Shown one piece after another: positions 3,324 to 49,720 of a stretch of DNA of 64,000 bases. Position numbers and translations under genes: made by a program. How positions within the stretch are numbered: the first letter of the stretch is position 1; each line of letters opens with the position of its first letter. Origin of the DNA: an uncultured Candidatus Saccharibacteria bacterium (GTDB lineage: Bacteria > Patescibacteriota > Dojkabacteria > J137); NCBI GenBank assembly GCA_964607415.1, contig CAZSKK010000001.1, positions 4,190 through 68,189 of the forward strand. The letters run 5' to 3'. Under the pieces are notes generated by a model. The model ran no database searches, was not told where the DNA came from, and saw only the letters and a list, made by a program, of their open reading frames with translations.

Positions 3324-4238
3324 ATGGAACTACCATATGAACTAAAAACGCTTTACTATCACTGGGAAAAACATACAGTTAAACCAGCCGCTCAAACAAA
3401 TAGTGATTTTAACCAATCAATCTATAATCAAGTTTTGTCTTTTGCAAATGAAAGAATGAATATTTGGGAGAAGAAAATATTGAATCAAAATCCGCCGTAC
3501 TCAAACGATCAGATTCTAACAAATTTTAGATTTTGCAATGTTTACAGAGAGCTTGATAAACAAACAATAGTTTTCCATAAACTGTTGAAACCGTTGAAAC
3601 ATGATTTGGATTTGTGGCTTTTGAATATGATTTTTTGCAGATTTGTTTGTAACCCAGAAACTATTACTAAAGTTGGTTTTTTAAACTTTGATACAAAAAA
3701 TAATCAAGAAGTTTATAAAAAGCTAGTGAATTTATCTTCACCAAAATATGGAACTGCCTATATTTTCCCAATTAGTATAATCCAAAAAAGTAAATGGAAT
3801 ACTCGTGAAAAATTTTTCTGTGAATATCTTCCCATAGCAATTCCCGACGTAAGTGAAATTATAAAATCTTTTGGAAATATTTCAGTAGTTGAAGCTTTGT
3901 CTAGAATTTTGCCTGCTTTTAAATTTAACTTTAAGTTTCACTGGACAGAGGTTTTAATAGATTTAGCATATCAATTCCCCGACTACATAGATTTATTTAA
4001 AGAATTTCCAATTGGTCCGGGATCCATTCCAAGTATGAAAAATTTAAATAATTTAAGAAATCCTGAAATTGTTTGCTTGAAATTAGTTTCTAGTGTTCCA
4101 GATAACTTTAATTATCTGACTTTCGAAGGGAAAACAATTTACTTAAGTGCAGAAAACTGGGAAGGAATTGGTTGTGAGTTTAGAAAATATTCAAACTTAA
4201 AACAAGGCAAAGGAAGAAAAAGAAGATTTAGAGATTAA
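3324..4238 (+). CDS. Hypothetical protein, 304 aa, with the conserved-looking motif FRFCNVYRELDKQT. Function unknown.
   Basis: Long ORF located 9 nt after the GNAT gene. I recognise no known domain. Confidence 0.4.
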   Translation: MELPYELKTLYYHWEKHTVKPAAQTNSDFNQSIYNQVLSFANERMNIWEKKILNQNPPYSNDQILTNFRFCNVYRELDKQTIVFHKLLKPLKHDLDLWLLNMIFCRFVCNPETITKVGFLNFDTKNNQEVYKKLVNLSSPKYGTAYIFPISIIQKSKWNTREKFFCEYLPIAIPDVSEIIKSFGNISVVEALSRILPAFKFNFKFHWTEVLIDLAYQFPDYIDLFKEFPIGPGSIPSMKNLNNLRNPEIVCLKLVSSVPDNFNYLTFEGKTIYLSAENWEGIGCEFRKYSNLKQGKGRKRRFRD

Positions 4239-5396: not shown

Positions 5397-6395
5397 ATGG
5401 TAAAATCTATAACTTTTTATTTTTCAAATTACATGGCAAACCCAGTTGTTAAATTTGTATTTAAAGATCCTAATAGGGATAGAATCATTCCTGTGAATTT
5501 AGTTCATAAATTGATAGCTACTGCTTTTATATTGGGAAGCATACTGGCTGGTTCAATAACAGCGGAAAGAGATGAATCTTGGAACGCACAGGATTTTTAT
5601 ATTAGGCTTAAAAATGGGCAGGCAGCAAAAATGGAAATAGTAGAATTTTTAAGCAATCCTGCAAAGATCAGGGAAATGGAACAATTACTAGAAAGTAATC
5701 AAGAAACTTCTGAAACCCTAAGCATCAATAATGCTGATATTTCACCTTTAAGAGTGGTCAATGGAGATGGCGAAGAGGTTACATTAGTGGTAGGTGATAG
5801 AAGGATCAGAACAGATAGTTTTCAGTTATCAAACCAAATAGCTGAAATTTCCTACCCTAATCTTAGTCTTGATACCCATGGTTTAACATTAAATATTAAC
5901 GAAAATAACGATAGCTCCCAGTTTAATGCTAATCAAATAAGTTTTAATGATCTTCTGAGAAAATCTAACGCGTTAAATGAACTTCTAATGATAATTTCGA
6001 ATGGGGATATAACTGTAGAAACTATATTGAGTAAATTACCTGAAAGCAATAGAGTTTATTGCGACTCATCCACAAATTACTCAGCAGTTTTAGATGGTGA
6101 AAGTGTGATACCAGATGGAATAAATGGTTATCTTTTAATAAATAGTAATAACCCTTTACAGTTATCAGCAGCACCAGAATTAAGTATTTTCGCTTCTTAC
6201 GGAATTGGCTTTCATGAGTTGACTGTTCACGAAATTAGATCCTCACAAGATCCTTCTTATAAGGCTACAGTTCAAGAACTAGAAAGTGAAGGTAATTTTG
6301 AGGCACTCTCAGAAATTCATGATTTATATGAAAGAGCAATTAAAGATTTATATAGTGCGTGCCAAATAGATTTTGATGGGTTAGGTGAAGGATAG
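5397..6395 (+). CDS. Hypothetical membrane-anchored protein (332 aa).
   Basis: ORF with an N-terminal hydrophobic segment. No recognised domain. Confidence 0.35.
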   Translation: MVKSITFYFSNYMANPVVKFVFKDPNRDRIIPVNLVHKLIATAFILGSILAGSITAERDESWNAQDFYIRLKNGQAAKMEIVEFLSNPAKIREMEQLLESNQETSETLSINNADISPLRVVNGDGEEVTLVVGDRRIRTDSFQLSNQIAEISYPNLSLDTHGLTLNINENNDSSQFNANQISFNDLLRKSNALNELLMIISNGDITVETILSKLPESNRVYCDSSTNYSAVLDGESVIPDGINGYLLINSNNPLQLSAAPELSIFASYGIGFHELTVHEIRSSQDPSYKATVQELESEGNFEALSEIHDLYERAIKDLYSACQIDFDGLGEG

Positions 6396-6406
6396 TAGCC
6401 TAGACC

Positions 6407-7228
6407 TTAGGCATGAACGCTTTGTCTGCAAACCCAAAACCTAACTTTTTTATTTTCATCGTTTAAAACCTGTAATTTCCAATTACGAAGTTCGTGACTA
6501 GTAGCTTGCAGTTCGTCATGGCTATCATCCACTTCTAAAATCACAATTCCATTCCCAGCTAAATATTTTGGTGCTTGTTCTAAAAGTTTTTTAATATATT
6601 TAAGCCCATCTTTTCCTCCATCTAAAGCTTTTTTAGGTTCAAAATCTTTAACGCTTGAATCGAGCTTTTTAATTCGGTTGGATGGAATATAGGGAAGGTT
6701 TGCGAAAATAATATCAAGCCGCGAGTTACGAGCTTCCAGCTTCGAGTAGCCTTCCAGCAAATCGGATTTGAAAATCTCTATGTTTGAGTTTGGCGCTAGA
6801 GTTTCTTTGTTTTGTCTTGCAATCGCTAGAGCCTTTTCGGACTTATCTGATAGATATCCTTCATAATTAATTCCTAGCTTTTCAAGTTCTAGTGCGAATG
6901 TTATGCCTATGCAGCCTGAACCAGTGCCAATGTCGGCCCACCTCACCCGTCTTCGCTTATGCTGAGCCACTCTCTCCTGAAGGAGAGGGAAATCTGAACG
7001 AAGTTCAGATGGGGTGAGGTGATCAATCGCAATCTTAATCATTCCCTCCGTCTCAACTCTTGGTATCAAAACATTTTTATTTACCACAAATTCTCTCCCA
7101 TAAAATTCTGCTTTTTCAACCAAATACTCAACAGGGGTTGATCCAACCTTTTTTAAATCTAATTTAGTTGGATCAACCCCATGTTTTATTAACCAGTTAA
7201 ATTCGTATGTGTTAAATTTTCTTTGCAT
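6407..7228 (-). CDS. prmC: Release-factor glutamine N5-methyltransferase (PrmC/HemK family).
   Basis: SAM motif I ADIGTGSGCIGI and an NPPY-type motif ANLPYIP. Confidence 0.8.
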   Translation of the reverse strand: MQRKFNTYEFNWLIKHGVDPTKLDLKKVGSTPVEYLVEKAEFYGREFVVNKNVLIPRVETEGMIKIAIDHLTPSELRSDFPLLQERVAQHKRRRVRWADIGTGSGCIGITFALELEKLGINYEGYLSDKSEKALAIARQNKETLAPNSNIEIFKSDLLEGYSKLEARNSRLDIIFANLPYIPSNRIKKLDSSVKDFEPKKALDGGKDGLKYIKKLLEQAPKYLAGNGIVILEVDDSHDELQATSHELRNWKLQVLNDENKKVRFWVCRQSVHA

Positions 7229-7237
7229 GAAGTAATT

Positions 7238-7981
7238 TTACAACAAACATGCATTCATTCCACTCAAATCATTAAAACAATTGCCGTCTTTGTCTAAAAT
7301 TATTACTTTTGTAACTTCAGAGTTGTAGTATTTGATATTTTCTAAAATTGGAACACTTACTTGAGATGTGTTATCGCTTAGACCTGTTGTAGTTTTGCAA
7401 AACTGAAATGTTGCCTCAGATCCACTTATTGTAAGCTTAAAATTTTTTCCACCACAATTAGATGAACCGCTTAGACTAACAGGCTCAATTCCCTTAAAAC
7501 CTTGTGCCTCTTCTACTGAAGTTGGGCCGGATAAAAATTCTTCTAAAACAAAAATAGTTTCATCAGTTCTTGATGTAGTTCTAAAAACTGCATCAACAAA
7601 AGAAAAATCATCTGTAGCTTCAGGAAATTTTTGAAAGTATACTCTTAGTGCTCGTTCATCTGGTATTTCTTCGGAGTCTTCATCATCTTCACTGGTCGAA
7701 TCACTGCTTTCTTGTGTGTTTTGCTCATCAGTATTCTCTTGCGATTCTTCGGAGTTATTTTCCTCAGAATCCTTGATAACAATGTATGTAACTGCAGCTG
7801 ATACAGCTGCAACTAAAAGAATAATTATAAACATCAAAAAATAAATAAGCCAAGAATTTTTCTTCTCTTTTTTTGTAGGTTCAATAACTTGAGCTGGAAC
7901 TGCATTAGGGGTGTCCATAGATAAGTAGCAAGTAATAAGTAAAATGTAACTAGTAACTAGAGAATTAGTACGCACCCTCAC
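7238..7981 (-). CDS. Hypothetical membrane-anchored protein with an acidic linker and a GerMN-like C-terminal domain. The track start is probably over-extended into the upstream repeat.
   Basis: ORF with a TM segment, a D/E/S-rich low-complexity stretch and a C-terminal beta-rich domain. Confidence 0.4.
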   Translation of the reverse strand: MRVRTNSLVTSYILLITCYLSMDTPNAVPAQVIEPTKKEKKNSWLIYFLMFIIILLVAAVSAAVTYIVIKDSEENNSEESQENTDEQNTQESSDSTSEDDEDSEEIPDERALRVYFQKFPEATDDFSFVDAVFRTTSRTDETIFVLEEFLSGPTSVEEAQGFKGIEPVSLSGSSNCGGKNFKLTISGSEATFQFCKTTTGLSDNTSQVSVPILENIKYYNSEVTKVIILDKDGNCFNDLSGMNACLL

Positions 7982-8110
7982 CCTGCCCTCTCCTTAAGAC
8001 AGCATATTATGCTGTCGAATGCAGCTTACTTAAGTTGTATTTTTAGCTGCACTCAAATGCACAATGTGCATTTTCGGGAGAGGAAATTCATGTGCCTCCC
8101 TTCTTACCTT
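7972..8110. repeat. GC-rich palindromic intergenic repeat (family 1), copy a.
   Basis: CCTCACCCTGCCCTCTCC, then the palindrome GACAGCATATTATGCTGTC, then GAATGCAGC, then a second palindrome AAATGCACAATGTGCATTT. Confidence 0.5.
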
Positions 8111-8168
8111 AAACTTCATACCTATAACCTGTCTGGCGCTAGAGCTCTTTACCTCTTAAGCTTTCTGG

Positions 8169-8534
8169 CTATTCCTTGTCCGTAAGCTCTTTTAGCACAT
8201 ATACAAGTTTTAAAGTCTTTCCGTCTTTTTTAACTTCTTCAAGTGCGTTTTCAATTAAATCTACTCTAATCAGTTCCTTCAAAAGGTCCATTCTTTCTTT
8301 AAGCTGAGAGATTTTTTCCTTTGTCTGTTTTATGTTTTCATCATCATTTACTTTTTCTCTAAGTTCTTTTGCTTTTTTAACAAGTTTTTGGAGTTCTTCG
8401 TAATCTTCTTGTTGAATTTGAAAATCTTTCAGATCAGCTCGAAGGGTTTTTAGTGTGTTTTTTAGCTGAAAATATTCGGAAGCATTATCAGCTCCTTCTG
8501 TAGTCTTTGTTACTTTTGTTTCTTGCACATTCAT
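8169..8534 (-). CDS. Hypothetical coiled-coil protein (121 aa).
   Basis: ORF rich in K/E heptad-like sequence. Confidence 0.35.
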   Translation of the reverse strand: MNVQETKVTKTTEGADNASEYFQLKNTLKTLRADLKDFQIQQEDYEELQKLVKKAKELREKVNDDENIKQTKEKISQLKERMDLLKELIRVDLIENALEEVKKDGKTLKLVYVLKELTDKE

Positions 8535-8605
8535 AAAACTTTCATAAAAATTAGTTAGATTATGATTATAGAATAACGAATATTGAATTAGTAAGCAATA
8601 GTCTC

Positions 8606-8728
8606 TGGCTTCACCTCATCCTCCCCTCTCCTGAGACAGCATATTATGCTGTCGAATGCAGCTAATTAAGATCTCGACAGGATAATATCCTGTCTCGGGG
8701 TGGCGAGCATGGCGAGCCGGGTGAGGTT
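8606..8728. repeat. GC-rich palindromic intergenic repeat (family 1), copy b.
   Basis: CACCTCATCCTCCCCTCTCC + GACAGCATATTATGCTGTCGAATGCAGC + CTCGACAGGATAATATCCTGTCTCGGGGTG + ...CCGGGTGAGGT. The ends form terminal inverted repeats. Confidence 0.5.
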
Positions 8729-8821
8729 GTGATAAAATAGTCTAGATGCTAAACACCTTAAAGTATCAAAATCCGTTATTCTTCTTGTACTTTAATTCAC
8801 ACTATCTAGTGCTAAATAATT

Positions 8822-9196
8822 TTGCTTTTTACTTTTTACATTTTTAATATGGAGTTTATTTTTGCTGCTCCTAATGTAAGTAAGCCAACCGCCGATACTT
8901 TTGAAGAATATTCTATAAAAAAACTAAGTAAGTTGAAGAAATTTTTAAGGGAAAAGAAAGATGCAAAGCATGAAGTTAGAATGTCTATTTCCAAACAAGG
9001 GGATGAGTTTGAGATTATGGCAGAACTTTTTAATAGTGAGCATATTGTTGTTAAAACTAAGAATAGAGCTATAAAACCTGGTATTGATTATATTTACGAT
9101 CAAATGAAAAGGAAACTCACGGAAGGCAAAGAAAGGAGGGTTGATTTAGCTCGAGTTAGAAGAAGATTTAAAGATGCATTTCCCAAATATTCATAA
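8822..9196 (+). CDS. hpf: Ribosome hibernation-promoting factor / RaiA (YfiA/HPF family). The likely start is MEFIF at about 8849.
   Basis: Resembles the HPF pattern (EEY..KKLSKL.K....HEVRMSI...GDEFEIMAELF..HIVVK....AIK.GIDYIYDQMKRKL). Confidence 0.55.
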   Translation: MLFTFYIFNMEFIFAAPNVSKPTADTFEEYSIKKLSKLKKFLREKKDAKHEVRMSISKQGDEFEIMAELFNSEHIVVKTKNRAIKPGIDYIYDQMKRKLTEGKERRVDLARVRRRFKDAFPKYS

Positions 9197-9287
9197 GGGA
9201 TATATTGATTTTAAACAAAATTTCAATTACACTTAACACATCAATCTCGAGTATAGATCGAGGATTTAATTTTTTATAAGTTTATTT

Positions 9288-9620
9288 ATGCGAAACATAG
9301 TTTCAAAAGTATATGCAACAAGTGTTGTTTCAGTAGCGCTTTTTGCATTAACAGCAGGTCTTAACGTAGTTTCTGCTGCATCTAATAGTGATGATGCTGC
9401 TGGATTCTTCTTTTTTATGCTTTATTGCATGGCATGTCTTTGTGGTTTAGCAATAGGATTAATAATTCCATTCTTTGTTTATAAAGATGCTGTAAAAAAT
9501 GAAGTTGAAAACCCAATCCTTTGGGCAGTTGTAACATTCTTTTTTACAATTCCAGGACTCTTGATTTACCTTTTGGCTATCAGACCAGATGCAGTAAAGA
9601 AGAAAGAAGGTGTTAAATAA
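9288..9620 (+). CDS. Small hypothetical membrane protein.
   Basis: ORF with two or three hydrophobic helices. Confidence 0.35.
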   Translation: MRNIVSKVYATSVVSVALFALTAGLNVVSAASNSDDAAGFFFFMLYCMACLCGLAIGLIIPFFVYKDAVKNEVENPILWAVVTFFFTIPGLLIYLLAIRPDAVKKKEGVK

Positions 9621-9666
9621 GGTAGAGAGGTGAAGAGGTAGAGAGCAATAGAGAAAAATGAAAACT

Positions 9667-9694
9667 GAAGCCGCGACATTGACGTCGCGGCTTC
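9667..9694. terminator. GC-rich palindromic hairpin GAAGCCGCGAC-attgac-GTCGCGGCTTC with no U-tract. A near-identical hairpin lies at 18585-18612.
   Basis: Perfect 11-bp stem at the 3' end of the 9288-9620 gene. The same stem sequence follows glyQS. Confidence 0.45.
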
Positions 9695-9768
9695 TTCATA
9701 ATAATCGTACATTAACCTTCCGTTTTGCCGATATTTTTCCTATAATGCTTTTGTATTAATTATAGCTT

Positions 9769-10281
9769 ATGCACCCTAGAAAAACTCTTTTGGTATTAAA
9801 TTCCATTCAACTCATATTTTTTGCAGCATTTACACTTTTTGTATTTTTACTTCCTTCAAACCAGGAAAGAATTTCTTCTCAGTTTGATAATTTCGATCTT
9901 TTTTATAAATTTGTTTTTAAAGGTGCTGTAGGTTTTTTAACATCTGAATATGTGAGTTTAGGGACAGTGTTATTTATTTTGACATTATTATCATTAATTT
10001 CTCTTCTTATTGTTCACGGAAATTTTAGGAAAGTATATGTATTCTCCTTACTGTATTACTTTCTAATAATCATTATTTTCCCTGTTGGGACAATATTGGG
10101 TTTATTGAGTTTGTTTCTTCTGTATGTTCTGTATGAGGATTATAAGCCTTTGGGTAAAGCACCAGCAAATCTAATTACAAATTTAGATGCTAAGATTGAA
10201 ACAACAAGAAAACCTGTAGAGCCTACACATAGAAAAATTATGAAGGAAACAAAACTTCTAGTAGAAGACAACGCCACCTAA
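9769..10281 (+). CDS. Hypothetical polytopic membrane protein.
   Basis: ORF. Hydrophobic. Confidence 0.35.
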   Translation: MHPRKTLLVLNSIQLIFFAAFTLFVFLLPSNQERISSQFDNFDLFYKFVFKGAVGFLTSEYVSLGTVLFILTLLSLISLLIVHGNFRKVYVFSLLYYFLIIIIFPVGTILGLLSLFLLYVLYEDYKPLGKAPANLITNLDAKIETTRKPVEPTHRKIMKETKLLVEDNAT

Positions 10282-11400
10282 TCCATATTCAGCTATTAAT
10301 TTAACGGCTTTTTCTATTTTTTCAGATTTAGGGAATACTATAATCTTTTTGTCTAGCTCAACAAAGTTCTCATTATCAATCGCTTGTATTGGTGTAATTT
10401 CCTCGAACTCTGATTTAATTTTTAAATCGATAATCTGTTTTTCTGTTAGTATATAATTGTCGGGATTCTTTAGTGCAATTTCTCTTTTTTCCCAGATATA
10501 TGCTTTAGTATTAACACTAATAAAGATTTTTTCTCTAGGTAAATCTTTTGAAATGTAATATTGTAAAACTTTTTCATACCATTCATCTGGAGCAATGGGG
10601 CCAGGCAGAATGCTATTTGGAGTTGTATACCCAAACCCTTCAATATGGATCTCATCTGCATAAATTGCAACAAGATTTAAAGCTAAATCGACCTTATAAC
10701 TGGGATCAAAGTTCTTGTAATCAGAGTAATCCACAAAATCACCCCATTTAGTAGGTAGTTGAACAGATAGTTGTATGTTTCTGGATTTTAACAAATCGCT
10801 TAAACTTGTAATTATTTCGTTGTAATTTGTTGTTAAAAATGATGTATCTAAGTGAATTTTTTGAATTGTGCTATTTTTTGTGAGTATATCAATATTGCTA
10901 AGGAATTGATCTTTATTTAAAGATTGCGATTCTACTTGTGGTTTAAAGGTTAGATAAATTGTAATAACATTTTTATCAATTGTATTTATAACTCCATCAT
11001 CTTTTATAACTATATTCTCTGATTTTTCTATTTCAGCTGAAAGGTTAAGTTTATCTGCTTCGGCCTTTGAGCCAGAGTCTAAGGCTAACACTTTGAGATC
11101 AGTTAAGCTTATGGGATCCTTTTTTGTATTGTTCAAATTTTCCGCTTCAATTTGTTCTTTGGATTCTGTAGGGGTATCAATTTCAACAATTTTTAAAATA
11201 GTTCTAGTATTAGAAAAATAGATATATGTTTTGTACAAGATAACTCCACTCAAAAGTCCAAGTATGCAAAAAAGAATAAAGGATGTGAAAAACCAAAGTA
11301 ACTTTTTTAATTTAGAACTTTTATTAGGGGCTGACTTTGATTTAGTAAACTCCTCGTTCTCTGAATAAGTTACGTCTAATGTTTTTACATTTTGGAGCAT
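10258..11400 (-). CDS. Hypothetical membrane-anchored protein (380 aa).
   Basis: ORF with an N-terminal TM segment after a K-rich leader. Confidence 0.4.
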   Translation of the reverse strand: MLQNVKTLDVTYSENEEFTKSKSAPNKSSKLKKLLWFFTSFILFCILGLLSGVILYKTYIYFSNTRTILKIVEIDTPTESKEQIEAENLNNTKKDPISLTDLKVLALDSGSKAEADKLNLSAEIEKSENIVIKDDGVINTIDKNVITIYLTFKPQVESQSLNKDQFLSNIDILTKNSTIQKIHLDTSFLTTNYNEIITSLSDLLKSRNIQLSVQLPTKWGDFVDYSDYKNFDPSYKVDLALNLVAIYADEIHIEGFGYTTPNSILPGPIAPDEWYEKVLQYYISKDLPREKIFISVNTKAYIWEKREIALKNPDNYILTEKQIIDLKIKSEFEEITPIQAIDNENFVELDKKIIVFPKSEKIEKAVKLIAEYGLGGVVFY

Positions 11401-11798
11401 TAGTTTTTTGAATCTAAAATTAAATTTACTAACCGATCGGCAAATTTATTTTGAGCTCTAGGTACATGAATAAATCTTATGGATTCAAACATGTTTTTTT
11501 GACTAACAACTTCGTCGAACAATGGCTTTATGTCAGGGCTCGAAACCTTGTACTCGCCGTTTAATTGTTTAACAACAAGTTCACTGTCCAAAAAACATTC
11601 TACCTTAAGAATCTTAGCTTTAAGAAGTGATTTTAAACCAAGAATTAAACCTGTATATTCTGCAAAGTTATTTGTTGCTGTATTTAAATGTTGACCTCCA
11701 AAATCAACAAGTGTATTGTTTTGATCAAATACTAAATATGCACTTGCTGCACTTCCTGGATTCCCTCTGGATCCTCCGTCTGTAAATAGTTTGAACAT
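11400..11798 (-). CDS. rnhA: Ribonuclease HI.
   Basis: N-terminal FTDGGSRGNPGSAASAYLV, the RNase H catalytic signature. Confidence 0.85.
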   Translation of the reverse strand: MFKLFTDGGSRGNPGSAASAYLVFDQNNTLVDFGGQHLNTATNNFAEYTGLILGLKSLLKAKILKVECFLDSELVVKQLNGEYKVSSPDIKPLFDEVVSQKNMFESIRFIHVPRAQNKFADRLVNLILDSKN

Positions 11799-11877
11799 AT
11801 AATTAAGTTTTAAACAATAAGTTTTAAGTTCTAAGTTTGTTAATAGCTAATAGCTTATAGTCATTAGCTTAGACCAT

Positions 11878-12045
11878 ATGCCTCTCCTTTAGGACGAGAA
11901 TGCATATTATGCATTCGAGTGCAGCTAATAACTAGCTTCACTCGACAGCACAACGTGCTGTCTCGGGGTGAGGTAAAAATAAAAGTTAAATTTGTCCAGC
12001 TAACCCCTCACCCTGCCCTCTCCCAGAGGGAGAGGGGGAATAGCA
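11878..12045. repeat. GC-rich palindromic intergenic repeat (family 1), copy c.
   Basis: GAATGCATATTATGCATTCGAGTGCAGC + CTCGACAGCACAACGTGCTGTCTCGGGGTGAGGT + CCCCTCACCCTGCCCTCTCCCAGAGGGAGAGGGGG. Confidence 0.5.
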
Positions 12046-12058
12046 AAAATTGCTTGCA

Positions 12059-12721
12059 TTATAGTTGACTCATAAAATACGTAATATTGCTAATCCATTT
12101 AGGTTTGTCTGTGTCAGGTCCTCCGTATGTGCTAATTACGCATGTTAAATCATTATTACACGGTTTTAAGAACTCTTTAGAGATTTTACACGATATTTGG
12201 TTTACTGCATCTTCCCAATTTGCATATTGTACACCATCCAGGTATCCAAAAGGGTTGTAAAGTTTATACGGTATTCTTCCAAAGCCTGATTCATTCCCAG
12301 CAATTGCGACAATAATTTTGTAGTCACCACCACATTCCGTTGCCCTATTAATTATTAACTTTCCAAGCCCTGACATTGGAGAATTGTATCGGCTAAAAAG
12401 GGCTTCAATTTTTGCTGCCTTTTCCTCTAAGACTCTTTCTTCAATTTCACTGATTTTCTGAAATCTTTTGGTTTCTATCTCTTGCTCTATTTCAGGGATG
12501 ATTATTGGCTTTGCTTCCTCTAGTTCTGTCTGAATAAAGTAAGAAGTTTTCGGCTCTTGTTTCAAACTCTCTTTTATAAGGTTTGTTAAGTAATACATAA
12601 CAATTACAGAAGGAACAGTTATCAGAATGGTTAGTGAAGAGGATAAACTAATCTCGAAAAACGTTCTTAAACCTTCTTTTGTTACAAAGCCAAAAATTTT
12701 GGGCGCACTTAAATCGTCCAT
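12059..12721 (-). CDS. Hypothetical membrane-anchored protein, possibly with a lysozyme-like/transglycosylase fold.
   Basis: ORF. AIAGNESGFG resembles the lytic-transglycosylase ES motif. Weak. Confidence 0.3.
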   Translation of the reverse strand: MDDLSAPKIFGFVTKEGLRTFFEISLSSSLTILITVPSVIVMYYLTNLIKESLKQEPKTSYFIQTELEEAKPIIIPEIEQEIETKRFQKISEIEERVLEEKAAKIEALFSRYNSPMSGLGKLIINRATECGGDYKIIVAIAGNESGFGRIPYKLYNPFGYLDGVQYANWEDAVNQISCKISKEFLKPCNNDLTCVISTYGGPDTDKPKWISNITYFMSQL

Positions 12722-18572: not shown

Positions 18573-18584
18573 CCAATATGGTAT

Positions 18585-18612
18585 GAAGCCGCGACGTCGA
18601 CGTCGCGGCTTC
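18585..18612. terminator. Bidirectional GC-rich hairpin GAAGCCGCGACG-tcga-CGTCGCGGCTTC between convergent genes.
   Basis: Same stem as 9667-9694. No U-tract. Confidence 0.45.
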
Positions 18613-18639
18613 ATATATGACAATTCCTGCATGCCACCC

Positions 18640-23276: not shown

Positions 23277-25916
23277 TTATTTTTTTAATTCACTCATACT
23301 CTTAAAAACTTGCACTAAAAGTTCAACATGCTGATTGAAGTCTTCTCCAAATTTTTCTAATCCGTAAGCTATATCCTCTCTATTAATTTTTGCCGCAAAG
23401 TGCTTATCTTTAAGTCTTTTTTTAACTCCTTTTGCATCCATTCCATCAAAACCCTGAGGTCTCATTAAGCTATAAGCATATAAAAATCCTGATAATTCAT
23501 CGCATGCAATTAGAGCGGCAGAAAGTTTTGTATCAGCAATTACTCCGTCGCCAATTTTATGCGCTTTTACAGCATGAATTAAGGCTCCAGGATATCCCCA
23601 TTTTGTAAACCACTCAATTGCTTTATTGGGATGTTCGTTTGGAAATTCGTAATAATCTATGTCGTGAAGTAGCCCTGTGATGTACCATAAGTCAGCATCG
23701 AGCTCTGAGCTTCCAGTTTTGGAGTTCAGCTTTTTAGCCCAAGCTTCCATTGCATTTGCAACCATTTTAGAATGCAAGATCTGATATTCATCTTTAACAT
23801 GTTCTTCCAAAAGTTTTAAAGCTTCATCTCTATTTGGAAGCTTACCTTCTTGATTAGGATCAATTTCAATAGAACTCTTTTGGGCTGCATTTTCGGATTT
23901 CTTTTGTTCAAATTTATCAATATTGGAATTAAGTGCATGTTTTTGCTCTGGTGTAATTACATCCAAAAAACTTTTACCTATTGAATCTGTATGAACATCT
24001 AGAATTAAAATTCCTTCATGATCATGCCCAATTCCAATTTCATCCTCAGCCAAAATCATTCCTTCAGATATGACTCCTCTTAAAGCCTTTTTTTCTAATT
24101 TTATTTCTTCATTATTGAAAATTAAAAAACCTGGAACAATATTTCCTTCACCTAGATACGGGACTAAATCATTAACTCTTATGTTGCTAGCTCCGGTTAC
24201 AATTTCTTTTTGAACATTACCATTATCAATTTTTACAATACTAAGTTTATCGGCGTTTGGATGTTTGGTAATTTCGATAATTTTGACTACTTGAATGTTC
24301 TTTACTAAATCTAAGAGCTGCGAGCTGTGAGCTCCGAGTTTCGAATCAGCTGGCTTTGAACTTTTCTTTTCTTCGAACTTAACTTGGGGGTAGATCTTCT
24401 TTGTATTTTCGTCAACACTTGTTTTTAGCTGAGGGAAAGGAACCCCTTCTTTTGCGGTAACATTTTCGAAAAACCAGAACACTCTTTCACTATGTCCATA
24501 ACCTACAGCTGGTGCCATGCCGTATTCCAACATTTCCACAAAATCGATATCCAGCATGTGAGCTTCATCATCACCAGAATCTCTTAAATTCTGTTGTTCT
24601 AAAAATCTTTCTAATTGATCAACCGGATCATTAAGTTCTGAAAATGCGTTTCCAAGCTCGCTTCCTGCAATGACTGGGTGGAATCTACAAGTCAGTCTTG
24701 CATCTTCTAAACTAGACTTTGCAAGCGGAGATAAAAATTTAGGAACATCAATTAAAAATGCCGGTCCTGCAATTGTTTTTCTTATTACTTTCCAAAGGTT
24801 ATCAACTACTCTATTTTTGTTTGTTTCTTCACCTAAATCTACACCATTTTCTTTCAAAACAGTATTCATTTTTTGAAGATCATCATTAAAAATATCTACT
24901 TTTAATCTTTCTCTAATAATGTCTGCAAAATGAATAATTTCCCATTCGTCATTCAAATTTACTTTAAATCCTTTTATTTCAAATTCAAGTTTTCCATAAA
25001 CTTCCTGCATTACATATTTAAATAGATTTTTTGTAAATTCCATCCCATCTTTGTAATCTGCATATGCCCAGTACCACTCCATTGCAATATGTTCTGGTAG
25101 ATGCTCATCGCTAAAACCTTCGTTTCTAAATCTTGGCCCAAGATCGTAAACTTTTTCAAATCCGCTACCTATTAATCTTTTTAAAGGAAGTTCGTGGGAA
25201 ATTCTTAAATAAAAATCTTGATCTAATGTATCGTAGTGAGTTACAAAAGGCTTCGCATCAGCACCGCCTGTTACATGCTCTAAAACTGGAATATTAACTT
25301 CTATAAATCCATTTTGATTTAAAAAATCCCTTGTTGCTTGCCAGAATTTTGCTCTTCTTTCAAATCTTTGTCTTACTTCCGGATGAAGGGTCATATCTAA
25401 ATACCTTCTTCTGAATCTTTCTTCAACATCATCCAAGTTTGTTGGAAGTGGTCTTATTGCTTTTGTAAGAATTCTTAAGTTTTTAACTAAAATTGAAATT
25501 TCACCTCTTTGGGTTTTTGTAATAACACCTTCCGTTTCTACAATATCTCCAATGTCAAGTAGATTTAGATCTTTAAATCCGACTGTCTGATTGGCTTTTG
25601 ACGTCCCAGAAATTTCATCATCTTTAATATAAAGTTGGATTTCTCCTGTTTGGTCTTGAATGTGTCCGAAAATTAAGTGACCGTGCTCTCTCCAGCTCAT
25701 TAATCTTCCTGCTAAAATCACAGTTTGATTTTCCAACGAATCAAAATTAGAAATTACATCAATGACTTTATGATCACGCTTAGATTTTGAAGGGTATGGA
25801 TCAATTCCTAGGTCCTTCAACTTTTGTACTTTTTGAAGCCTTAAAGTTCTTTGTCCGATTAGGTCTGAGGTTTCTTTGGTTATAGCCATATATAGTTTAA
25901 TTAAGTTTAGATTCAC
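23277..25916 (-). CDS. lysS: Lysyl-tRNA synthetase (class II) fused to a C-terminal tRNA-binding (Trbp111/EMAPII-like) domain and a YqeK-like HD phosphohydrolase domain.
   Basis: 879 aa. Class II LysRS motifs (GPRFRNEG; GSELGNAFSEL; GYGHSERVF). Then ...KHPNADKLSIVKIDNG...GVISEGMILAED (tRNA-binding fold). Then HSKMVANAME...GLLHDIDY...EHPNK...HAVKAHK...ACDE (HD domain). Confidence 0.85.
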   Translation of the reverse strand: MNLNLIKLYMAITKETSDLIGQRTLRLQKVQKLKDLGIDPYPSKSKRDHKVIDVISNFDSLENQTVILAGRLMSWREHGHLIFGHIQDQTGEIQLYIKDDEISGTSKANQTVGFKDLNLLDIGDIVETEGVITKTQRGEISILVKNLRILTKAIRPLPTNLDDVEERFRRRYLDMTLHPEVRQRFERRAKFWQATRDFLNQNGFIEVNIPVLEHVTGGADAKPFVTHYDTLDQDFYLRISHELPLKRLIGSGFEKVYDLGPRFRNEGFSDEHLPEHIAMEWYWAYADYKDGMEFTKNLFKYVMQEVYGKLEFEIKGFKVNLNDEWEIIHFADIIRERLKVDIFNDDLQKMNTVLKENGVDLGEETNKNRVVDNLWKVIRKTIAGPAFLIDVPKFLSPLAKSSLEDARLTCRFHPVIAGSELGNAFSELNDPVDQLERFLEQQNLRDSGDDEAHMLDIDFVEMLEYGMAPAVGYGHSERVFWFFENVTAKEGVPFPQLKTSVDENTKKIYPQVKFEEKKSSKPADSKLGAHSSQLLDLVKNIQVVKIIEITKHPNADKLSIVKIDNGNVQKEIVTGASNIRVNDLVPYLGEGNIVPGFLIFNNEEIKLEKKALRGVISEGMILAEDEIGIGHDHEGILILDVHTDSIGKSFLDVITPEQKHALNSNIDKFEQKKSENAAQKSSIEIDPNQEGKLPNRDEALKLLEEHVKDEYQILHSKMVANAMEAWAKKLNSKTGSSELDADLWYITGLLHDIDYYEFPNEHPNKAIEWFTKWGYPGALIHAVKAHKIGDGVIADTKLSAALIACDELSGFLYAYSLMRPQGFDGMDAKGVKKRLKDKHFAAKINREDIAYGLEKFGEDFNQHVELLVQVFKSMSELKK

Positions 25917-27044: not shown

Positions 27045-27097
27045 AAAATTAAGATTTAAGAATTAAGAATCGAGAATCATGGGAACTATATAATGTA

Positions 27098-27143
27098 GCT
27101 ATCAGCTATCAGCTATCAGCTATCAGCTATCAGCTATCAGCTC
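27098..27143. repeat. Tandem heptanucleotide repeat (TATCAGC)x6-7 overlapping the 3' end and stop codon of the 27130-27891 gene.
   Basis: AGCTATCAGCTATCAGCTATCAGCTATCAGCTATCAGCTATCAGCTC read directly. A shorter (x3) copy lies inside the 30204-30914 ORF at about 30555-30580. Confidence 0.8.
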
Positions 27144-28094: not shown

Positions 28095-28232
28095 CAACCC
28101 TCCGTCTCTTTGAGACACCTCCAGAAAATGCACATTGTGCATTTGGGAATAAAATAGAAGATTTAATTTATTTAACCTCACCCGATGCTGAAACAAAGTT
28201 CAGGATCGACCTCTCCATAAGGAAAGGTAAAT
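28095..28232. repeat. GC-rich palindromic intergenic repeat (family 1), copy d (diverged).
   Basis: CCCTCCGTCTCTTTGAGAC ... AAATGCACATTGTGCATTT ... AACCTCACCCG. Confidence 0.4.
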
Positions 28233-30203: not shown

Positions 30204-30914
30204 ATGTATTTTAAAACTGATTCTAAAATAATTGATTACAATAATGAACCGGATGTAACTGAAAGCTATAATCAAGGTTTTGTATTCACTCGTCTAGGTA
30301 AAGGGGAAATGATTCAAACCCGTTCTTTAAGAATTGATTTATCCGATTTTAAATTAACTTCAGAAAATAGGAGAATACTTAAAAAAGTTGAAGGTTTAAA
30401 GTTAAATGTTAAAAGTTTGCCTTTAAAAAATTATTCCTGGGAAATTCATAAGCTAGGCAAAGAATTTTATTCTACAAAATTTGGCGATAACACAATGAGT
30501 GCAGCGAAAATTAAAGAAATGTTTACGAGTAATGAAAGCTCCAATATGAATTTGACTATCAGTTATCAGCTATCAGCTATTGGTATAAAAACTCAAGCTG
30601 AAAGTCGAAAGCAGATAGCTGACGGCTATTGCTTATGCTATGCAAACTCTACTCTACTTCATTATGCTTACCCCTTTTACGATTTAGAAGTTGCAAAAAA
30701 ATTGCCCAATCTTGGATTAGGAATGATGATTAATGCAATTATTTGGGCAAGAGAAAATGGTAAAAAGTATTTTTATCTGGGATCAGTAGTTGATTCCTCC
30801 TCAAGGTATAAACTTCAATTCGAAAGCTTAGAATGGTGGAATACTCATACTGGTAAGTGGAGTACTGATATTTCTGAATTAAAAGTGCTTTTGGATACAG
30901 CTGGATCCATGTGA
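30204..30914 (+). CDS. Aminoacyl-tRNA--protein transferase (Bpt/ATE1 family, N-end rule).
   Basis: C-terminal ATE_C-like pattern DGYCLCYANSTLLHYAYPFYDLE...LGLGMMINAIIWAREN...YFYLGSVVD...YKLQFESLEWW. Confidence 0.6.
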   Translation: MYFKTDSKIIDYNNEPDVTESYNQGFVFTRLGKGEMIQTRSLRIDLSDFKLTSENRRILKKVEGLKLNVKSLPLKNYSWEIHKLGKEFYSTKFGDNTMSAAKIKEMFTSNESSNMNLTISYQLSAIGIKTQAESRKQIADGYCLCYANSTLLHYAYPFYDLEVAKKLPNLGLGMMINAIIWARENGKKYFYLGSVVDSSSRYKLQFESLEWWNTHTGKWSTDISELKVLLDTAGSM

Positions 30915-42737: not shown

Positions 42738-42935
42738 GAGTCTTTGCGAGGAGCGTAAGCGACGAAGCAAACTCTGTAAAGTAAAGCGTTAATTTAATGA
42801 GACTGCTTCGTCACGATAAATCGTGACTCGCAGTGACTTCAAAGTAGTTAAGCACCTCCTCGCAAAGACTCTTCCTTAGACACACGCTAGCAGTGACTTC
42901 AAAGTACTAAGGCATTTCCTCGCAAAGACTTGACT
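42738..42935. repeat. Repeat block 3' of the GIY-YIG ORF: two 60-bp tandem repeats (42830-42870 and 42890-42930) plus an inverted copy (42738-42754). Related sequence at 43270-43305 flanks the ORF on the other side.
   Basis: GCAGTGACTTCAAAGTA(G/C)T(T)AAG(C/G)CA(CC/TT)TCCTCGCAAAGACT x2; inverted GAGTCTTTGCGAGGAGC; AATGAG..GCTTCG..CTCGC(A/G)AAGACT occurs on both flanks. Confidence 0.6.
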
Positions 42936-42939
42936 CATT

Positions 42940-43230
42940 TTATTCTTCCAAACTTAAATCCATCCAATCAGGATTAAATTGGTTAATAAGTTTTAATTTC
43001 TTTAGCCTTGAACCTGATTTAATTTGTTTTTCTCTATCTATTGCCGCATTTGGGGAGTTAAATACTTCATAATATACAAGTTTATTTGCATTGTATCTTG
43101 CACTAAAGCTTTTAGCGTTTACTTTGAATTTATGCTCAGATGCTCGTCGTTGTAAGTTATTGGTAATGCCTGTATACAAAACAGAGTTGTATTTATTTGT
43201 CATAATATAGACATAATAATACTTATTCAT
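42940..43230 (-). CDS. GIY-YIG nuclease superfamily protein (UPF0213/YhbQ-like).
   Basis: YYVYIMTNKYNSVLYTGITNNLQRRASEHK (GIY...YIG...R...E). 96 aa. Confidence 0.75.
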   Translation of the reverse strand: MNKYYYVYIMTNKYNSVLYTGITNNLQRRASEHKFKVNAKSFSARYNANKLVYYEVFNSPNAAIDREKQIKSGSRLKKLKLINQFNPDWMDLSLEE

Positions 43231-43334
43231 AAATGAAATTAAAAACTGTTGGGGATAGCTAATTATAGCACCACTTTAATGAGTTCGCTTCGCTGCGCTC
43301 GCGAAGACTTATACTTTTCATTGATGGAAATACA

Positions 43335-43441
43335 ATAAATACATTCCTAAGATTTACAGAGTATGAGACAAGAAACAGCCTTTATGAGGTTGTGCAAACG
43401 ATTGAACTGAAGATTAGAGAGCTGGAAGCTCAACACCCCTA
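43335..43441 (+). pseudogene. Truncated 3' fragment (about 35 codons) of a DUF559 gene. It duplicates the 3' end of 45468-45932 at high identity.
   Basis: TTCCTAAGATTTACAGAGTATGAG(A/G)CAAGAAACAGCCTTTATGAGGT(T/G)GTGCAAACGATTGAACT...CAACACCCCTAA present at 43335-43441 and 45836-45932. Confidence 0.6.
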
Positions 43442-43532
43442 ACCCCTTCTTGGAAAGAGGGGAAAGAACACCCCGAAAAAGCATAAATGCTTTTTCACCC
43501 GTCTTGTGAAGAGGGGTGTTAGCGGCAGCTTC
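43441..43532. repeat. GC-rich hairpin repeats (related to family 1).
   Basis: CCCCTTCTTGGAAAGAGGGG and CACCCGTCTTGTGAAGAGGGGTG palindromes. Similar units occur at 45411-45470 and 45933-45983. Confidence 0.4.
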
Positions 43533-45405: not shown

Positions 45406-45467
45406 ATGAGACTGACGCTACTTTAGCCACCCCTCTTTGAAGAGGGGTAAACAACACAAAGTGTTGT

Positions 45468-45932
45468 TTGGGGTGTTGGAATTTTCTTCAAAATTTGTAT
45501 TTCAATACAATGTTTTTTCTTCTGAACTTGTCTATAATTTCTCTGCTGATCACATTTTATATGAGTTACGTTCCGTATAACAAAAAACTAAAACATCGGG
45601 CTAGTCATCTTCGAAATAACTCAACACGTGGAGAGACTTTATTATGGCAAAAGCTAAAACATAGACAGCAAGGTTACGATTTTAATCGACAGAAACCTTT
45701 GCTAAATTATATTGTAGACTTTTACTGTATAAAGTTAAAACTTGCAATTGAAATTGATGGCTCGTCTCACGATGAAGCTAAATTTGAGTACGATGAGAGA
45801 AGGCAAAGAGAACTTGAACGGGAAGGAATAACGTTCCTAAGATTTACAGAGTATGAGGCAAGAAACAGCCTTTATGAGGTGGTGCAAACGATTGAACTTA
45901 AGATTATGGAGCTGGAGCAGCAACACCCCTAA
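45468..45932 (+). CDS. DUF559 / Vsr-like endonuclease-domain protein. The true start is probably an internal Met.
   Basis: GETLLWQKLK...GYDFNRQ...IVDFYC...LAIEIDGSSHD...DERRQRELEREGITFLRF. Confidence 0.6.
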   Translation: MGCWNFLQNLYFNTMFFLLNLSIISLLITFYMSYVPYNKKLKHRASHLRNNSTRGETLLWQKLKHRQQGYDFNRQKPLLNYIVDFYCIKLKLAIEIDGSSHDEAKFEYDERRQRELEREGITFLRFTEYEARNSLYEVVQTIELKIMELEQQHP

Positions 45933-45983
45933 ATGCATAATATGCATTTCTCCCCTCTTCAAAGAGGGGAAATAACACTACAC

Positions 45984-48557: not shown

Positions 48558-48660
48558 CGTAAGACAACTGATGCAATTTCCTCTCCATAGTGAATGAAAT
48601 GAAAGGATGGAGAGGGTGGTTTGAGCTTTGCTCAAACCGGGTGAGGATTAAAACTAAGCA
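48558..48660. repeat. GC-rich inverted-repeat element (family 1-related), copy h.
   Basis: CCTCTCCAT...ATGGAGAGGG inverted pair, GGTTTGAGC-tttg-CTCAAACC hairpin, CCGGGTGAGG. Confidence 0.35.
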
Positions 48661-49594: not shown

Positions 49595-49720
49595 TTTGGA
49601 AATAACTCCATTCGACAGCATAATATGCTGTCTCACCCTCTCAAGAGGGGAGATGGAACATTCCGATAACTCGCCAAACCCGTAAACTCGTTAACCCGCT
49701 AACTCGTAAACTGGCCTCTA
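49595..49720. repeat. GC-rich palindromic repeat (family 1), copy i, plus an imperfect approximately 16-nt tandem repeat (TAACTCG..AAACCCG) x3.
   Basis: CGACAGCATAATATGCTGTCTCACCCTCTCAAGAGGGGAG, then AACTCGCCAAACCCGTAAACTCGTTAACCCGCTAACTCGTAAACTGG. Confidence 0.45.

Follow-up and report, generated by a model that had tools for sequence, protein, structure and literature searches.

GC-rich repeats of a Dojkabacteria genome: small palindromes nested in an intrastrand-triplex motif that also flanks DUF559 endonuclease genes

Introduction

What are the short GC-rich, palindrome-bearing repeats that punctuate the AT-rich genome of an uncultured Dojkabacteria bacterium, and how did they come to be there? 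The stretch of DNA analysed here, hereafter the window, comprises 64,000 nucleotides (nt), positions 4,190 to 68,189 of contig CAZSKK010000001.1; it is densely coding, with a background of about 32% GC, and its gene content fits the candidate phyla radiation (CPR), with a lysyl-tRNA synthetase (LysRS) fused to tRNA-binding and HD domains, ProRS, SerRS, PGK, PBP1 and many NUDIX genes. A first-pass annotation, made from the letters alone, had listed nine such repeats, regarded them as one modular and strictly intergenic family with terminal inverted ends, and proposed that they were either elements resembling MITEs (miniature transposable elements with inverted repeats) or repetitive extragenic palindromes (REPs), or else structured small RNAs whose GC-richness reflected selection for stable structure.

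The reading that we favour, and to which we assign a probability of roughly 0.55, is that the repeats are selfish elements of two kinds acting at the level of DNA, namely small palindromes nested in a triplex motif, inverted copies of which end a unit that carries a DUF559 endonuclease gene. To our knowledge, the motif in question, variously called BoxC, PIT or TM, goes back to the 1990s and is found in E. coli, in cyanobacteria and in hundreds of other genomes, with neither an origin nor an enzyme known for it; earlier work on it is said to have come from Bachellier and from Hoyne and Maher.

Results

GC-rich copies in and between genes

All nine sites proved to be GC-rich, hairpin-bearing sequence (39-53% GC per element, with cores of up to 70%), and their shared features are far above chance. 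The block GGGTGAGG is present 8 times where 0.38 is expected, a count that none of 100 shuffles reached, and GGAGAGG is present 14 times where 2.6 is expected. The window has 40 perfect hairpins whose stem is 8 bp or longer, as compared with about 15.5 (range 6-24) in 20 shuffles; 8 of them are perfect 19-nt palindromes with a 9+1+9 layout, and about six more palindromes of the family measure 19-22 nt. When folded as single-stranded DNA (ssDNA) and compared with shuffles, the elements have z-scores of -4.2 to -6.9, the weaker folds being those of a bare 46-nt motif at 12000-12045 (z -1.6) and of a copy inside prmC (z -2.5). The elements sum to about 960 nt, or 1.5% of the window, and their distribution is both patchy and clustered.

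Copies stand in divergent, tandem and convergent spacers and in both orientations, so that the claim of the first-pass annotation regarding junction types is borne out. Its claim that every copy is intergenic had to be given up because a tenth copy, unlisted before, lies on the minus strand at 6938-7021 within the open reading frame (ORF) of prmC, 6407-7228. At least two sub-families can be told apart: the copies between 6.9 and 12 kb and at 28, 48.6 and 49.6 kb belong to the CCTCACCC/CCTCTCC type, whereas sub-family B, the copies at 43.4 kb and between 45.4 and 46.0 kb, is of the CAACACCCC/CCCCTCTT type. A local duplication can be set aside, since more copies are present in another part of the same genome (locus L076).

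The scaffold is a triplex motif

Beneath the variation lies a common scaffold, which runs in the order pyrimidine arm CCCTCTCC, loop, purine arm GGGAGAGG, short loop and G-rich third block GGGTGAGG, or as the whole reverse complement of this. The third segment mirrors the purine arm, with G opposite G and T or A opposite A. The copies, which we number E0 to E9, are built as follows; H1, H2 and H3 are hairpins, and z refers to the ssDNA fold.

6938-7021, minus strand: E0, in prmC, 84 nt = 28 codons; CACCTCACCCC, palindrome ATCTGAACTTCGTTCAGAT, CCCTCTCC-TTCA-GGAGAGAG, 21-nt spacer, GGGTGAGGTGG; encodes HLTPSELRSDFPLLQERVAQHKRRRVRW.
7974-8084, plus strand: E1, triplex motif; third' block CCCTCACCC, TG, pyrimidine arm CCCTCTCC, then purine arm GGGAGAGG beyond the loop; z -5.9.
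7998-8073, within E1: hairpin loop enlarged to 82 nt, with three nested hairpins, H1 (7998-8016), H2 (8017-8054) and H3 (8055-8073).
8612-8729, plus strand: E2, in a divergent spacer; CACCTCATCC-TC-CCCTCTCC, H1 (8635-8653), truncated H2, H3 (8676-8694), GGGGTG, spacer GCGAGCATGGCGAGCC, GGGTGAGGTTG; z -4.4.
11880-11974, plus strand: E3a; GCCTCTCC, H1 (11898-11916), H2, H3 (11944-11962), GGGGTGAGG; z -6.9.
12004-12040, plus strand: E3b, bare triplex motif; CCCCTCACCC-TG-CCCTCTCC-CAGA-GGGAGAGGGGG, with loops of 4 and 2 nt.
28104-28222, plus strand: E4, degenerate triplex motif; hairpin GTCTC-TTT-GAGAC, palindrome AAATGCACATTGTGCATTT (28126-28144), AT-rich spacer, CCTCACCC-(GATGCTGAAACAAAGTTCAGGATC)-GACCTCTCC-ATAA-GGAAAGG; hairpin in the short loop; z -4.4.
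43432-43530, plus strand: E5, two tandem sub-family-B units; z -4.2.
First unit of E5: AACACCCC-TAA-CCCCTTCT-TGGAA-AGAGGGG.
Second unit of E5: AACACCCC-(palindrome 43475-43496)-ACCCGTCTT-GTGA-AGAGGGG-TGTT.
45428-45478, plus strand: E6, left end of the DUF559 unit; CCCCTCTT-TG-AAGAGGGG, palindrome AAACAACACAAAGTGTTGTTT in the short loop, third segment GGGGTGTTG; z -4.2.
45921-45971, plus strand: E7, closing the DUF559 unit on the right, in inverse orientation to E6; CAACACCCC-TA-(palindrome AAATGCATAATATGCATTT)-C-TCCCCTCTT-CA-AAGAGGGGA; z -6.8.
48578-48647, plus strand: E8, in a convergent spacer; triplex motif whose short loop holds a palindrome; CCTCTCCAT-(18-nt loop)-ATGGAGAGG-GT-(palindrome GGTTTGAGCTTTGCTCAAACC)-GGGTGAGG; z -6.0.
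49606-49712, plus strand: E9; palindrome GACAGCATAATATGCTGTC (49614-49632), CACCCTCTCAAGAGGGGAG, octamer array (AAACTCGT-like) at 49676-49712; z -4.5.

Judged by its block order and its pairing rule, the scaffold is the BoxC/PIT/TM intrastrand-triplex motif of E. coli and cyanobacteria. The TM consensus reads CCCTCNCCC N3-6 GGGNGAGGG N3 GGGNGAGGG (Holder et al., PMC4666352), and the reverse strand of E3b, CCCCCTCTCCC-TCTG-GGAGAGGG-CA-GGGTGAGGGG, fits it except that its second loop has 2 nt, not 3. A 42-nt query from E3b matched 4190 of 5426 complete E. coli genomes by blastn, at about 90% identity over 39 nt, one example being an inverted motif pair in the flgG-flgH spacer of strain 042. In E0, E1, E4 and E8 the three blocks are kept and the loops are enlarged, and E3a, a 30-nt AT-rich spacer and E3b form an inverted pair without a gene. 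Sub-family B (CAACACCCC / CCCCTCTT..AAGAGGGG / GGGGTGTTG) follows this plan with a different set of arms, and there too the third block mirrors the purine arm, with T opposite A; the variants in E6 and E7 obey the triplex pairing rule as well (AAGAGGGG with GGGGTGTT). The TM motif has 23 copies in E. coli K-12 and is known from over 260 genomes, with very high numbers in cyanobacteria; it formed a triplex in vitro that was not found in vivo (PMC4666352).

This identity bears on the GC-richness of the repeats. It need not reflect local selection for stable structure, as had been suggested, because it is inherent to a motif whose arms are runs of C and G and is common to copies in unrelated phyla. 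We also considered a G-quadruplex in the G-rich strand and rejected it as a general explanation, since many variants (AGAGGGG...GGGGTGTG) have only two G-runs. The CACCTCATCC hairpin beside E. coli sapF resembles the supposed terminal inverted repeat of the window; it is most simply the sapF terminator, and we take the likeness as coincidence.

Two palindromes nested in the scaffold have cores identical to those of REPs

The second kind of repeat consists of perfect palindromes of 19-21 nt, symmetric to the centre (a 1-nt 'loop'), that are housed in the loops of the triplex motif. The hairpin loop of one and the same motif measures 4 nt in E3b and 82 nt in E1, where it holds three hairpins, and E0, E4, E6, E7 and E8 each have a palindrome in the short loop that separates the purine arm from the third block. 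E2 and E3a align with E1 over their full length, and their H1 and H3 palindromes differ and yet stay perfect (variants GACAGCATATTATGCTGTC, GAATGCATATTATGCATTC, AAATGCACAATGTGCATTT, GACAGGATAATATCCTGTC and GACAGCACAACGTGCTGTC); the E9 palindrome GACAGCATAATATGCTGTC is the reverse-orientation homologue of H1 in E1 and E2. The palindromes behave as separate small units nested in the scaffold, because two DUF559 3' ends in the window (43341-43476 and 45831-45971) differ by exactly one 17-nt palindrome, which is present in the copy at E7 and missing from that at E5. The single family that the first-pass annotation had seen is thus a mosaic, as it had said, made of two nested kinds of repeat in at least two sub-families and not bounded as a whole by terminal inverted repeats (TIRs).

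These small units have counterparts in other phyla. A scan with one genome per species returned 69 occurrences of GACAGCATAWTATGCTGTC across 59 matched loci, most of them from one Omnitrophota metagenome-assembled genome (MAG); in those loci the core always stands as GTAGG-core-CCTAC, beside GTAGGGGCGGGTTTNAAACCCGCCCCTAC and other variants of the 19-nt core, among them GACAGGATAATATCCTGTC, which also occurs in the window. REPs with the GACAGCATAWTATGCTGTC core are likewise found in Falkowbacteria, Ignavibacteria, Bacteroidetes and Anaerolineae MAGs. These GTAGG-core-CCTAC palindromes belong to the GTAG-tagged REPs as Di Nocera et al. (PMC3733652) use the term, and two window cores (GACAGCATAWTATGCTGTC and GACAGGATAATATCCTGTC) are identical to cores of such REPs. 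In one Bacteroidetes MAG (JAEXTA010000018; locus L047, 7166-7738) the REP, there a perfect 29-nt palindrome GTAGGGACAGCATAATATGCTGTCCCTAC, lies on both sides of a frameshift-split gene (7210-7374 and 7371-7700) for a REP-associated tyrosine transposase (RAYT), whose relatives are Y1_Tnp/'RayT' proteins. The window palindromes also agree with what is generally expected of REPs, a palindrome of 20-40 bp in high copy number and mostly extragenic, in that the 8 of 19 nt and about six more of 19-22 nt were counted in 64 kb. A search of JGI metagenomes with H1 and its window-specific flank (GACAGCATAWTATGCTGTCGAATG) gave 0 matches, and therefore no further copies of exactly that sub-family were seen there.

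Triplex motifs flank DUF559 genes in a preferred orientation

The window holds two nuclease genes, which together with a fragment of one of them are placed as follows.

42940-43230: GIY-YIG ORF.
43341-43442, plus strand: DUF559 pseudogene fragment, a 102-nt copy of the gene's 3' end at 90% identity, 2.5 kb from the gene, adjoining the GIY-YIG ORF and running straight into E5.
45561-45932, plus strand: gene for a DUF559 (Vsr-like PD-(D/E)XK) endonuclease of 123 aa (Pfam PF04480, E 4e-28); its stop codon lies within E7.

The DUF559 profile matches PDB 3hrl (E 1e-16) and the catalytic domain of the phage homing endonuclease 'mobile intron protein' 3r3p (E 9e-5). The gene is bracketed by E6 and E7 as inverted sub-family-B motifs. 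A paralogue at 67% identity is found in the same genome (L076), with triplex-like motifs ahead of it. DUF559 genes are multi-copy, their closest relatives are in other phyla, and many homologues have repeat-derived tails (for example ...NPPDPLSKGE and ...TPSPTFPQGRE).

The association extends well beyond this genome. Among 80 metagenomic loci that encode relatives of the window DUF559 protein and range from 30 to 62% GC, 71 have a homopyrimidine-arm hairpin within 200 nt of the gene, and the density of such hairpins is 4.33 per kb near DUF559, as against 0.48 in non-ORF DNA more than 300 nt away and 0.05 in ORFs. Their orientation is not random: upstream of the gene the hairpin precedes a G-rich third block in 49 cases and the opposite holds in 5, downstream a C-rich third block precedes the hairpin in 50 cases against 13, and in both majority orientations it is the third block that faces the gene. 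The arrangement occurs on both sides in 33 of the 68 loci with enough flank. The same arm variant is found on the two sides in 36 of 43 loci, where random pairing gives 13.3 +/- 2.5 and a maximum of 22, and the third block co-varies with the arm as the mirror rule predicts (AGAGGGG/GGGGTGT, GGAGGGG/GGGGTGG, AAGGGGG/GGGGGAT). This pattern suggests that the triplex motifs are the termini of a DUF559 selfish element, the mobility of which we infer. In the literature that we searched, to a limited extent that is no proof of its being unpublished, no link between DUF559 and repeats was found.

Some of the same loci (L082-L161; for example L105 1261-1384 and L092 1309-2052) have downstream tandem arrays of 3-5 triplex units at a spacing of about 54-150 nt. 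The GIY-YIG ORF of the window has flanking repeats of its own (42740-43310), with GTCTTTGCGAGGAG inverted to CTCCTCGCAAAGAC (twice), a 44-nt direct repeat at 42827/42887 and CGCGAAGAC upstream; this arrangement suggests a second small selfish nuclease unit beside the DUF559 fragment.

E. coli K-12 has a single DUF559 gene, ycjD (in the segment 1,351,040-1,351,830), whose stop codon is covered by a degenerate motif; next come some 50 nt duplicated from the 3' end of ycjD itself and then TM no. 9 in the list of Holder et al. (PMC4666352). In about 2000 of the 5426 E. coli genomes, the segment with ycjD and the TM is replaced by the eefRABCD efflux locus, the homology with K-12 ending about 40 nt before the TM; these observations refer to the loci of K-12 and E. 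coli Nissle.

Copies inside prmC and dus keep the reading frame

The copy in prmC is 84 nt long, a multiple of three, and keeps the reading frame. In a protein alignment, the window PrmC, whose closest relatives are annotated Candidatus Dojkabacteria and which has an identical counterpart on a contig of 584,792 bp, has about 22 extra residues (TPSELRSDFPLLQERVAQHKRRRV) just ahead of the GTGSG motif; an 86%-identical relative has the same insert and most Dojkabacteria PrmC proteins lack it. The locus L076, which was reached via the DUF559 paralogue, has two elements inside dus. The first lies within a stretch of about 68 residues that does not align to PDB 1vhn, about 40 of them encoded by the element; the second replaces an inter-domain linker with no net change in length and encodes PLLQERVA, a peptide common to the prmC and dus inserts. 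Frame-preserving insertion that adds a conserved peptide, which is on record for Rickettsia palindromic elements (RPEs), is thus seen in both genes.

Precisely where the window PrmC has its insert, other Dojkabacteria PrmC proteins (L071 10199-10294; P0003 and P0014) have inserts that differ from it and are GC-rich and repeat-derived (PPNPLSSGGKAPSLEGWLGRV; KCHAEPVEASTFSSSKQ); the site is either a hot spot or a tolerant loop.

Other repeats and genes in the window

Heptamer and octamer tandem arrays are present at 27097-27142, 30556-30580, 24311-24359, 6712-6760, 49676-49712 and 8703-8718, with the units AGCTATC (x6.6), CTATCAG (x3.6), GAGCTGC-like and AAACTCGT (x4.6), and bear a likeness to cyanobacterial STRR repeats. 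Some lie within ORFs (the LysRS linker, prmC and ORF 30204-30914), others abut triplex motifs; in LysRS (23277-25916, 879 aa, with the fused domains mentioned above) the heptamers occupy the linker between the catalytic and tRNA-binding parts. A second palindrome family (GAAGCCGCGACGTCGACGTCGCGGCTTC) is found at gene 3' ends, at 9667-9694 and 18582-18615 and in L076 at 5602-5635; one copy is a 34-nt perfect palindrome, one was called terminator-like, and Logan contigs of this organism stop at palindromes of this family. A protein resembling the helical domain of 5-hydroxymethyldeoxyuridine (5-hmdU) DNA kinase is encoded near a Type ISP restriction-modification gene (3324-4238 together with L061 6160-9339, just upstream of the window), and in the 51-60 kb region genes of the NUDIX, nucleoside 2-deoxyribosyltransferase, HD and APH-like kinds are unusually concentrated. 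Both regions may serve nucleotide or DNA-modification metabolism.

Discussion

How might the two kinds of repeat be related?

The reading that we favour starts from what is directly observed, that is the anatomy of the copies, their identity with known motifs, the nesting, the in-frame copies in genes and the oriented, co-varying flanks of metagenomic DUF559 genes, and it arranges these in a series of conjectured steps. Two inverted triplex motifs would form the ends of a small DUF559 endonuclease gene unit, and single motifs and gene-less inverted pairs such as E3a and E3b would be its non-autonomous, MITE-like derivatives. The autonomous parent with the same ends that a MITE family calls for has a candidate in the DUF559 gene between E6 and E7, which is not an insertion sequence (IS). 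The DUF559 protein would nick or break DNA at a motif, and recombination or gene conversion between motif copies would then follow in a homing-like manner. The palindromes, lodged at positions that would be single-stranded in the folded form, could have been inserted into these ssDNA loops by a RAYT-like activity, acting either in trans or in the past. Only harmless copies would persist, namely those in spacers, whichever way they point, and those in protein loops that tolerate them with the frame kept. In its boldest form, the proposal holds that BoxC/PIT/TM motifs represent both the inverted ends and the MITE-like remains of a selfish DUF559 element spread across phyla, whose enzyme recognises or nicks the folded structure, and that REP palindromes are second-order parasites in the ssDNA loops; this we hold only tentatively, at somewhat short of even odds.

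A number of points weigh against such a reading. No movement was seen, contigs of this organism from 5-8 sequencing runs per region being 100% identical to the window, and the sole syntenic relative (L071), which has no intergenic copies, is too diverged for its spacers to be aligned or empty sites to be defined. No target-site duplication was recognisable at the copies. Both here and in E. coli, which has 23 motifs and one ycjD, the majority of triplex motifs have no DUF559 gene anywhere near, and Holder et al. saw no mobility genes near the E. coli motifs (PMC4666352). The E. coli ycjD locus, examined as a possible clean case of presence and absence, had to be rejected as such, its alternative allele being the eef operon and not an empty site. 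The motifs on either side of the DUF559 gene may instead serve to regulate or insulate it, and DUF559 is itself a predicted nuclease of putative activity and specificity. As for the palindromes, no GTAG/CTAC or CGTC tag stands beside any of those in the window, the flanks being ..GA-palindrome-GAATG, CACTC-palindrome-TCGGG and CCCCT-palindrome-CTCCC; no RAYT was found in the roughly 90 kb (about 15%) sampled of a genome of at least 585 kb, and the 584,792-bp contig bears none of the 120 best relatives of the Bacteroidetes RAYT with REPs on its flanks.

Which of the alternatives could account for the repeats?

The palindromes invite the view that all the hairpins are classical REPs, spread by a RAYT (an IS200/IS605-like Y1 transposase) encoded elsewhere in the genome, with the C/G-run motifs serving as mosaic linkers as they do in the bacterial interspersed mosaic elements (BIMEs) of E. 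coli. The identity of the cores with those of RAYT-flanking GTAG REPs speaks for it, as does the mosaic, clustered organisation, and REPs within genes were reported by Di Nocera et al. (PMC3733652). Besides the missing tags, however, it has to contend with the failure to find the enzyme in the DNA sampled: Pfam found no RAYT, Y1_Tnp, other transposase or IS among about 69 non-nested ORFs of at least 80 aa in the window, and when E. coli RayT and the L047 RAYT were used as phmmer and jackhmmer queries, the six-frame ORFs of all loci, the window, L061 and L076 included, yielded only the Bacteroidetes RAYT itself. It also leaves the three-segment motif and the link with DUF559 unexplained, and we consider it unlikely. 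What stands of the original MITE/REP-like assignment is that the repeats are small, structured and dispersed in any type of spacer, with some inverted ends and with exact RAYT-REP cores; what falls is a single TIR-bounded element; the tag of a REP is lacking, and a cognate transposase or RAYT was not found in the places searched.

Equally improbable, in our estimate, is that the motifs are DNA structural sites useful to the host, such as sites for recombination, replication pausing or nucleoid proteins or inducers of plasticity, with DUF559 as a housekeeping enzyme that processes them. TM/PIT motifs in E. coli have been tied to local genomic instability (PMC4666352), homology among E. coli genomes ends some 40 nt away from TM no. 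9 in those 2000 or so, and the motif is conserved over very distant phyla, all of which speaks for such sites. Against this, copies are absent from the syntenic intergenic regions of the related Dojkabacteria contig, their distribution is patchy and clustered, duplicated gene fragments lie alongside them, and some are inserted within essential genes; moreover, a multi-copy gene with repeat-derived tails and its closest relatives in other phyla, as DUF559 is, is typical of a selfish gene.

The first-pass annotation had also proposed structured small RNAs, and one may add cis-acting RNA elements (stabilisers, terminators or riboregulators), GC-rich for stability. The predicted folds are very stable, E1 and E3a have a closing stem around three hairpins, differences between copies preserve pairing, and many REPs are thought to act as RNA elements (PMC3733652). 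However, Rfam reported only a tRNA-Ser at gathering score in the window and no element match up to an E-value of 5 in 7900-12100, and a terminator scan found no T-tract after the hairpins and called none of them terminator-like; PIT motifs had neither promoter nor terminator activity in E. coli (PMC4666352). Copies show no positional bias: spacers of the divergent, tandem and convergent kinds all hold them, they point either way, and some lie in frame within ORFs. Symmetry to a 1-nt centre is not needed by an RNA hairpin, and the third segment obeys purine-motif triplex rules, a pairing that cannot form in RNA (PMC4666352). We regard a role as RNA as very unlikely.

Least probable of all is an ordinary IS-derived MITE family moved by a DDE transposase, with target-site duplications and with CACCTCAYCC and GGGTGAGGTG as TIRs, for although the copies are dispersed and below 200 bp and such inverted ends do occur in E2 and E0, the only window copies with this sequence, and in a dus copy, and E3a and E3b taken as a pair have inverted ends as well, most copies and all single motifs lack them, the supposed TIRs are third segments of the triplex motif that also occur singly, and neither target-site duplications nor, in the window and the sampled loci, an IS or DDE transposase came to light.

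What the repeats mean for small genomes

On the favoured reading of nested selfish elements, a small AT-rich CPR genome (a contig of about 585 kb) would carry at least two layers of selfish repeats, some of them written into the essential genes prmC and dus without breaking them, by the same route to protein novelty as that of the RPEs of Rickettsia. The motif is near-identical from Dojkabacteria to E. coli, and the palindrome cores are identical over six lineages in at least four phyla (Omnitrophota, Bacteroidota including Ignavibacteria, Chloroflexota and CPR/Patescibacteria), and therefore horizontal traffic of very small DNA elements is indicated. In the literature searched, in a limited way, no description of REP-like repeats in Patescibacteria was found. 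The kinds of element are known ones, namely BoxC/TM motifs, REP-like palindromes and genic insertion of the RPE type, here found as a variant in a CPR host. Beyond this genome, it is the DUF559 association that could matter most: the oriented, co-varying flanks provide a testable link between an orphan repeat (BoxC/PIT/TM) and an orphan protein family (DUF559/YcjD), and if the link is true, the long-orphan triplex repeat gains DUF559 as a candidate enzyme.

Comparison with known systems

Elhai and colleagues reportedly described, in 2008, cyanobacterial small dispersed repeats nested in MITEs. The window repeats resemble these, as well as BIMEs, in their mosaic and combinatorial use of small palindromic units and in the insertion of small repeats into larger ones; unlike both, they have other unit types and another grammar, and the host scaffold is the triplex motif. 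Taken alone, the palindromes are like GTAG REPs (PMC3733652; Nunvar et al. 2010) in being short, GC-rich, dispersed, clustered and sometimes intragenic. They are unlike them in being untagged, perfect to the centre and set inside another repeat, with no RAYT in the sampled DNA.

RPEs (Ogata et al. 2000; PMC10969869) offer a parallel of another sort, for they too are palindromic repeats of an AT-rich, reduced genome that stand in spacers and, in frame, in housekeeping genes to which they add a conserved peptide. The likeness is functional only, and the host here is a CPR bacterium and not Rickettsia; the window elements measure 37-120 nt as compared with about 100-150, consist of a triplex motif and palindromes, and provide three genic cases so far.

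The three-segment architecture of the scaffold is that of the E. coli TM, with nearly the same sequence, and in both cases copies are intergenic, without strand bias and often in inverted pairs. In contrast to E. coli, the window motif belongs to an AT-rich CPR genome, has loops that hold nested palindromes of 19 to 82 nt, comes with a variant set of arms (CCCCTCTT/AAGAGGGG/GGGGTGTTG), is found in some copies in frame within genes, and brackets a DUF559 gene, a link of which the description of the E. coli TM (PMC4666352) makes no mention.

That gene, finally, recalls the genes, free-standing or borne by introns, for homing endonucleases of the PD-(D/E)XK 'EDxHD' type represented by I-Bth0305I (PDB 3r3p), which are likewise small selfish nuclease genes with a patchy, cross-phylum distribution. 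Unlike these, DUF559 units are not housed in introns or inteins; inverted repeats with structure form their boundaries, and any targets that they have would be copies of the repeat at scattered places rather than one allelic site.

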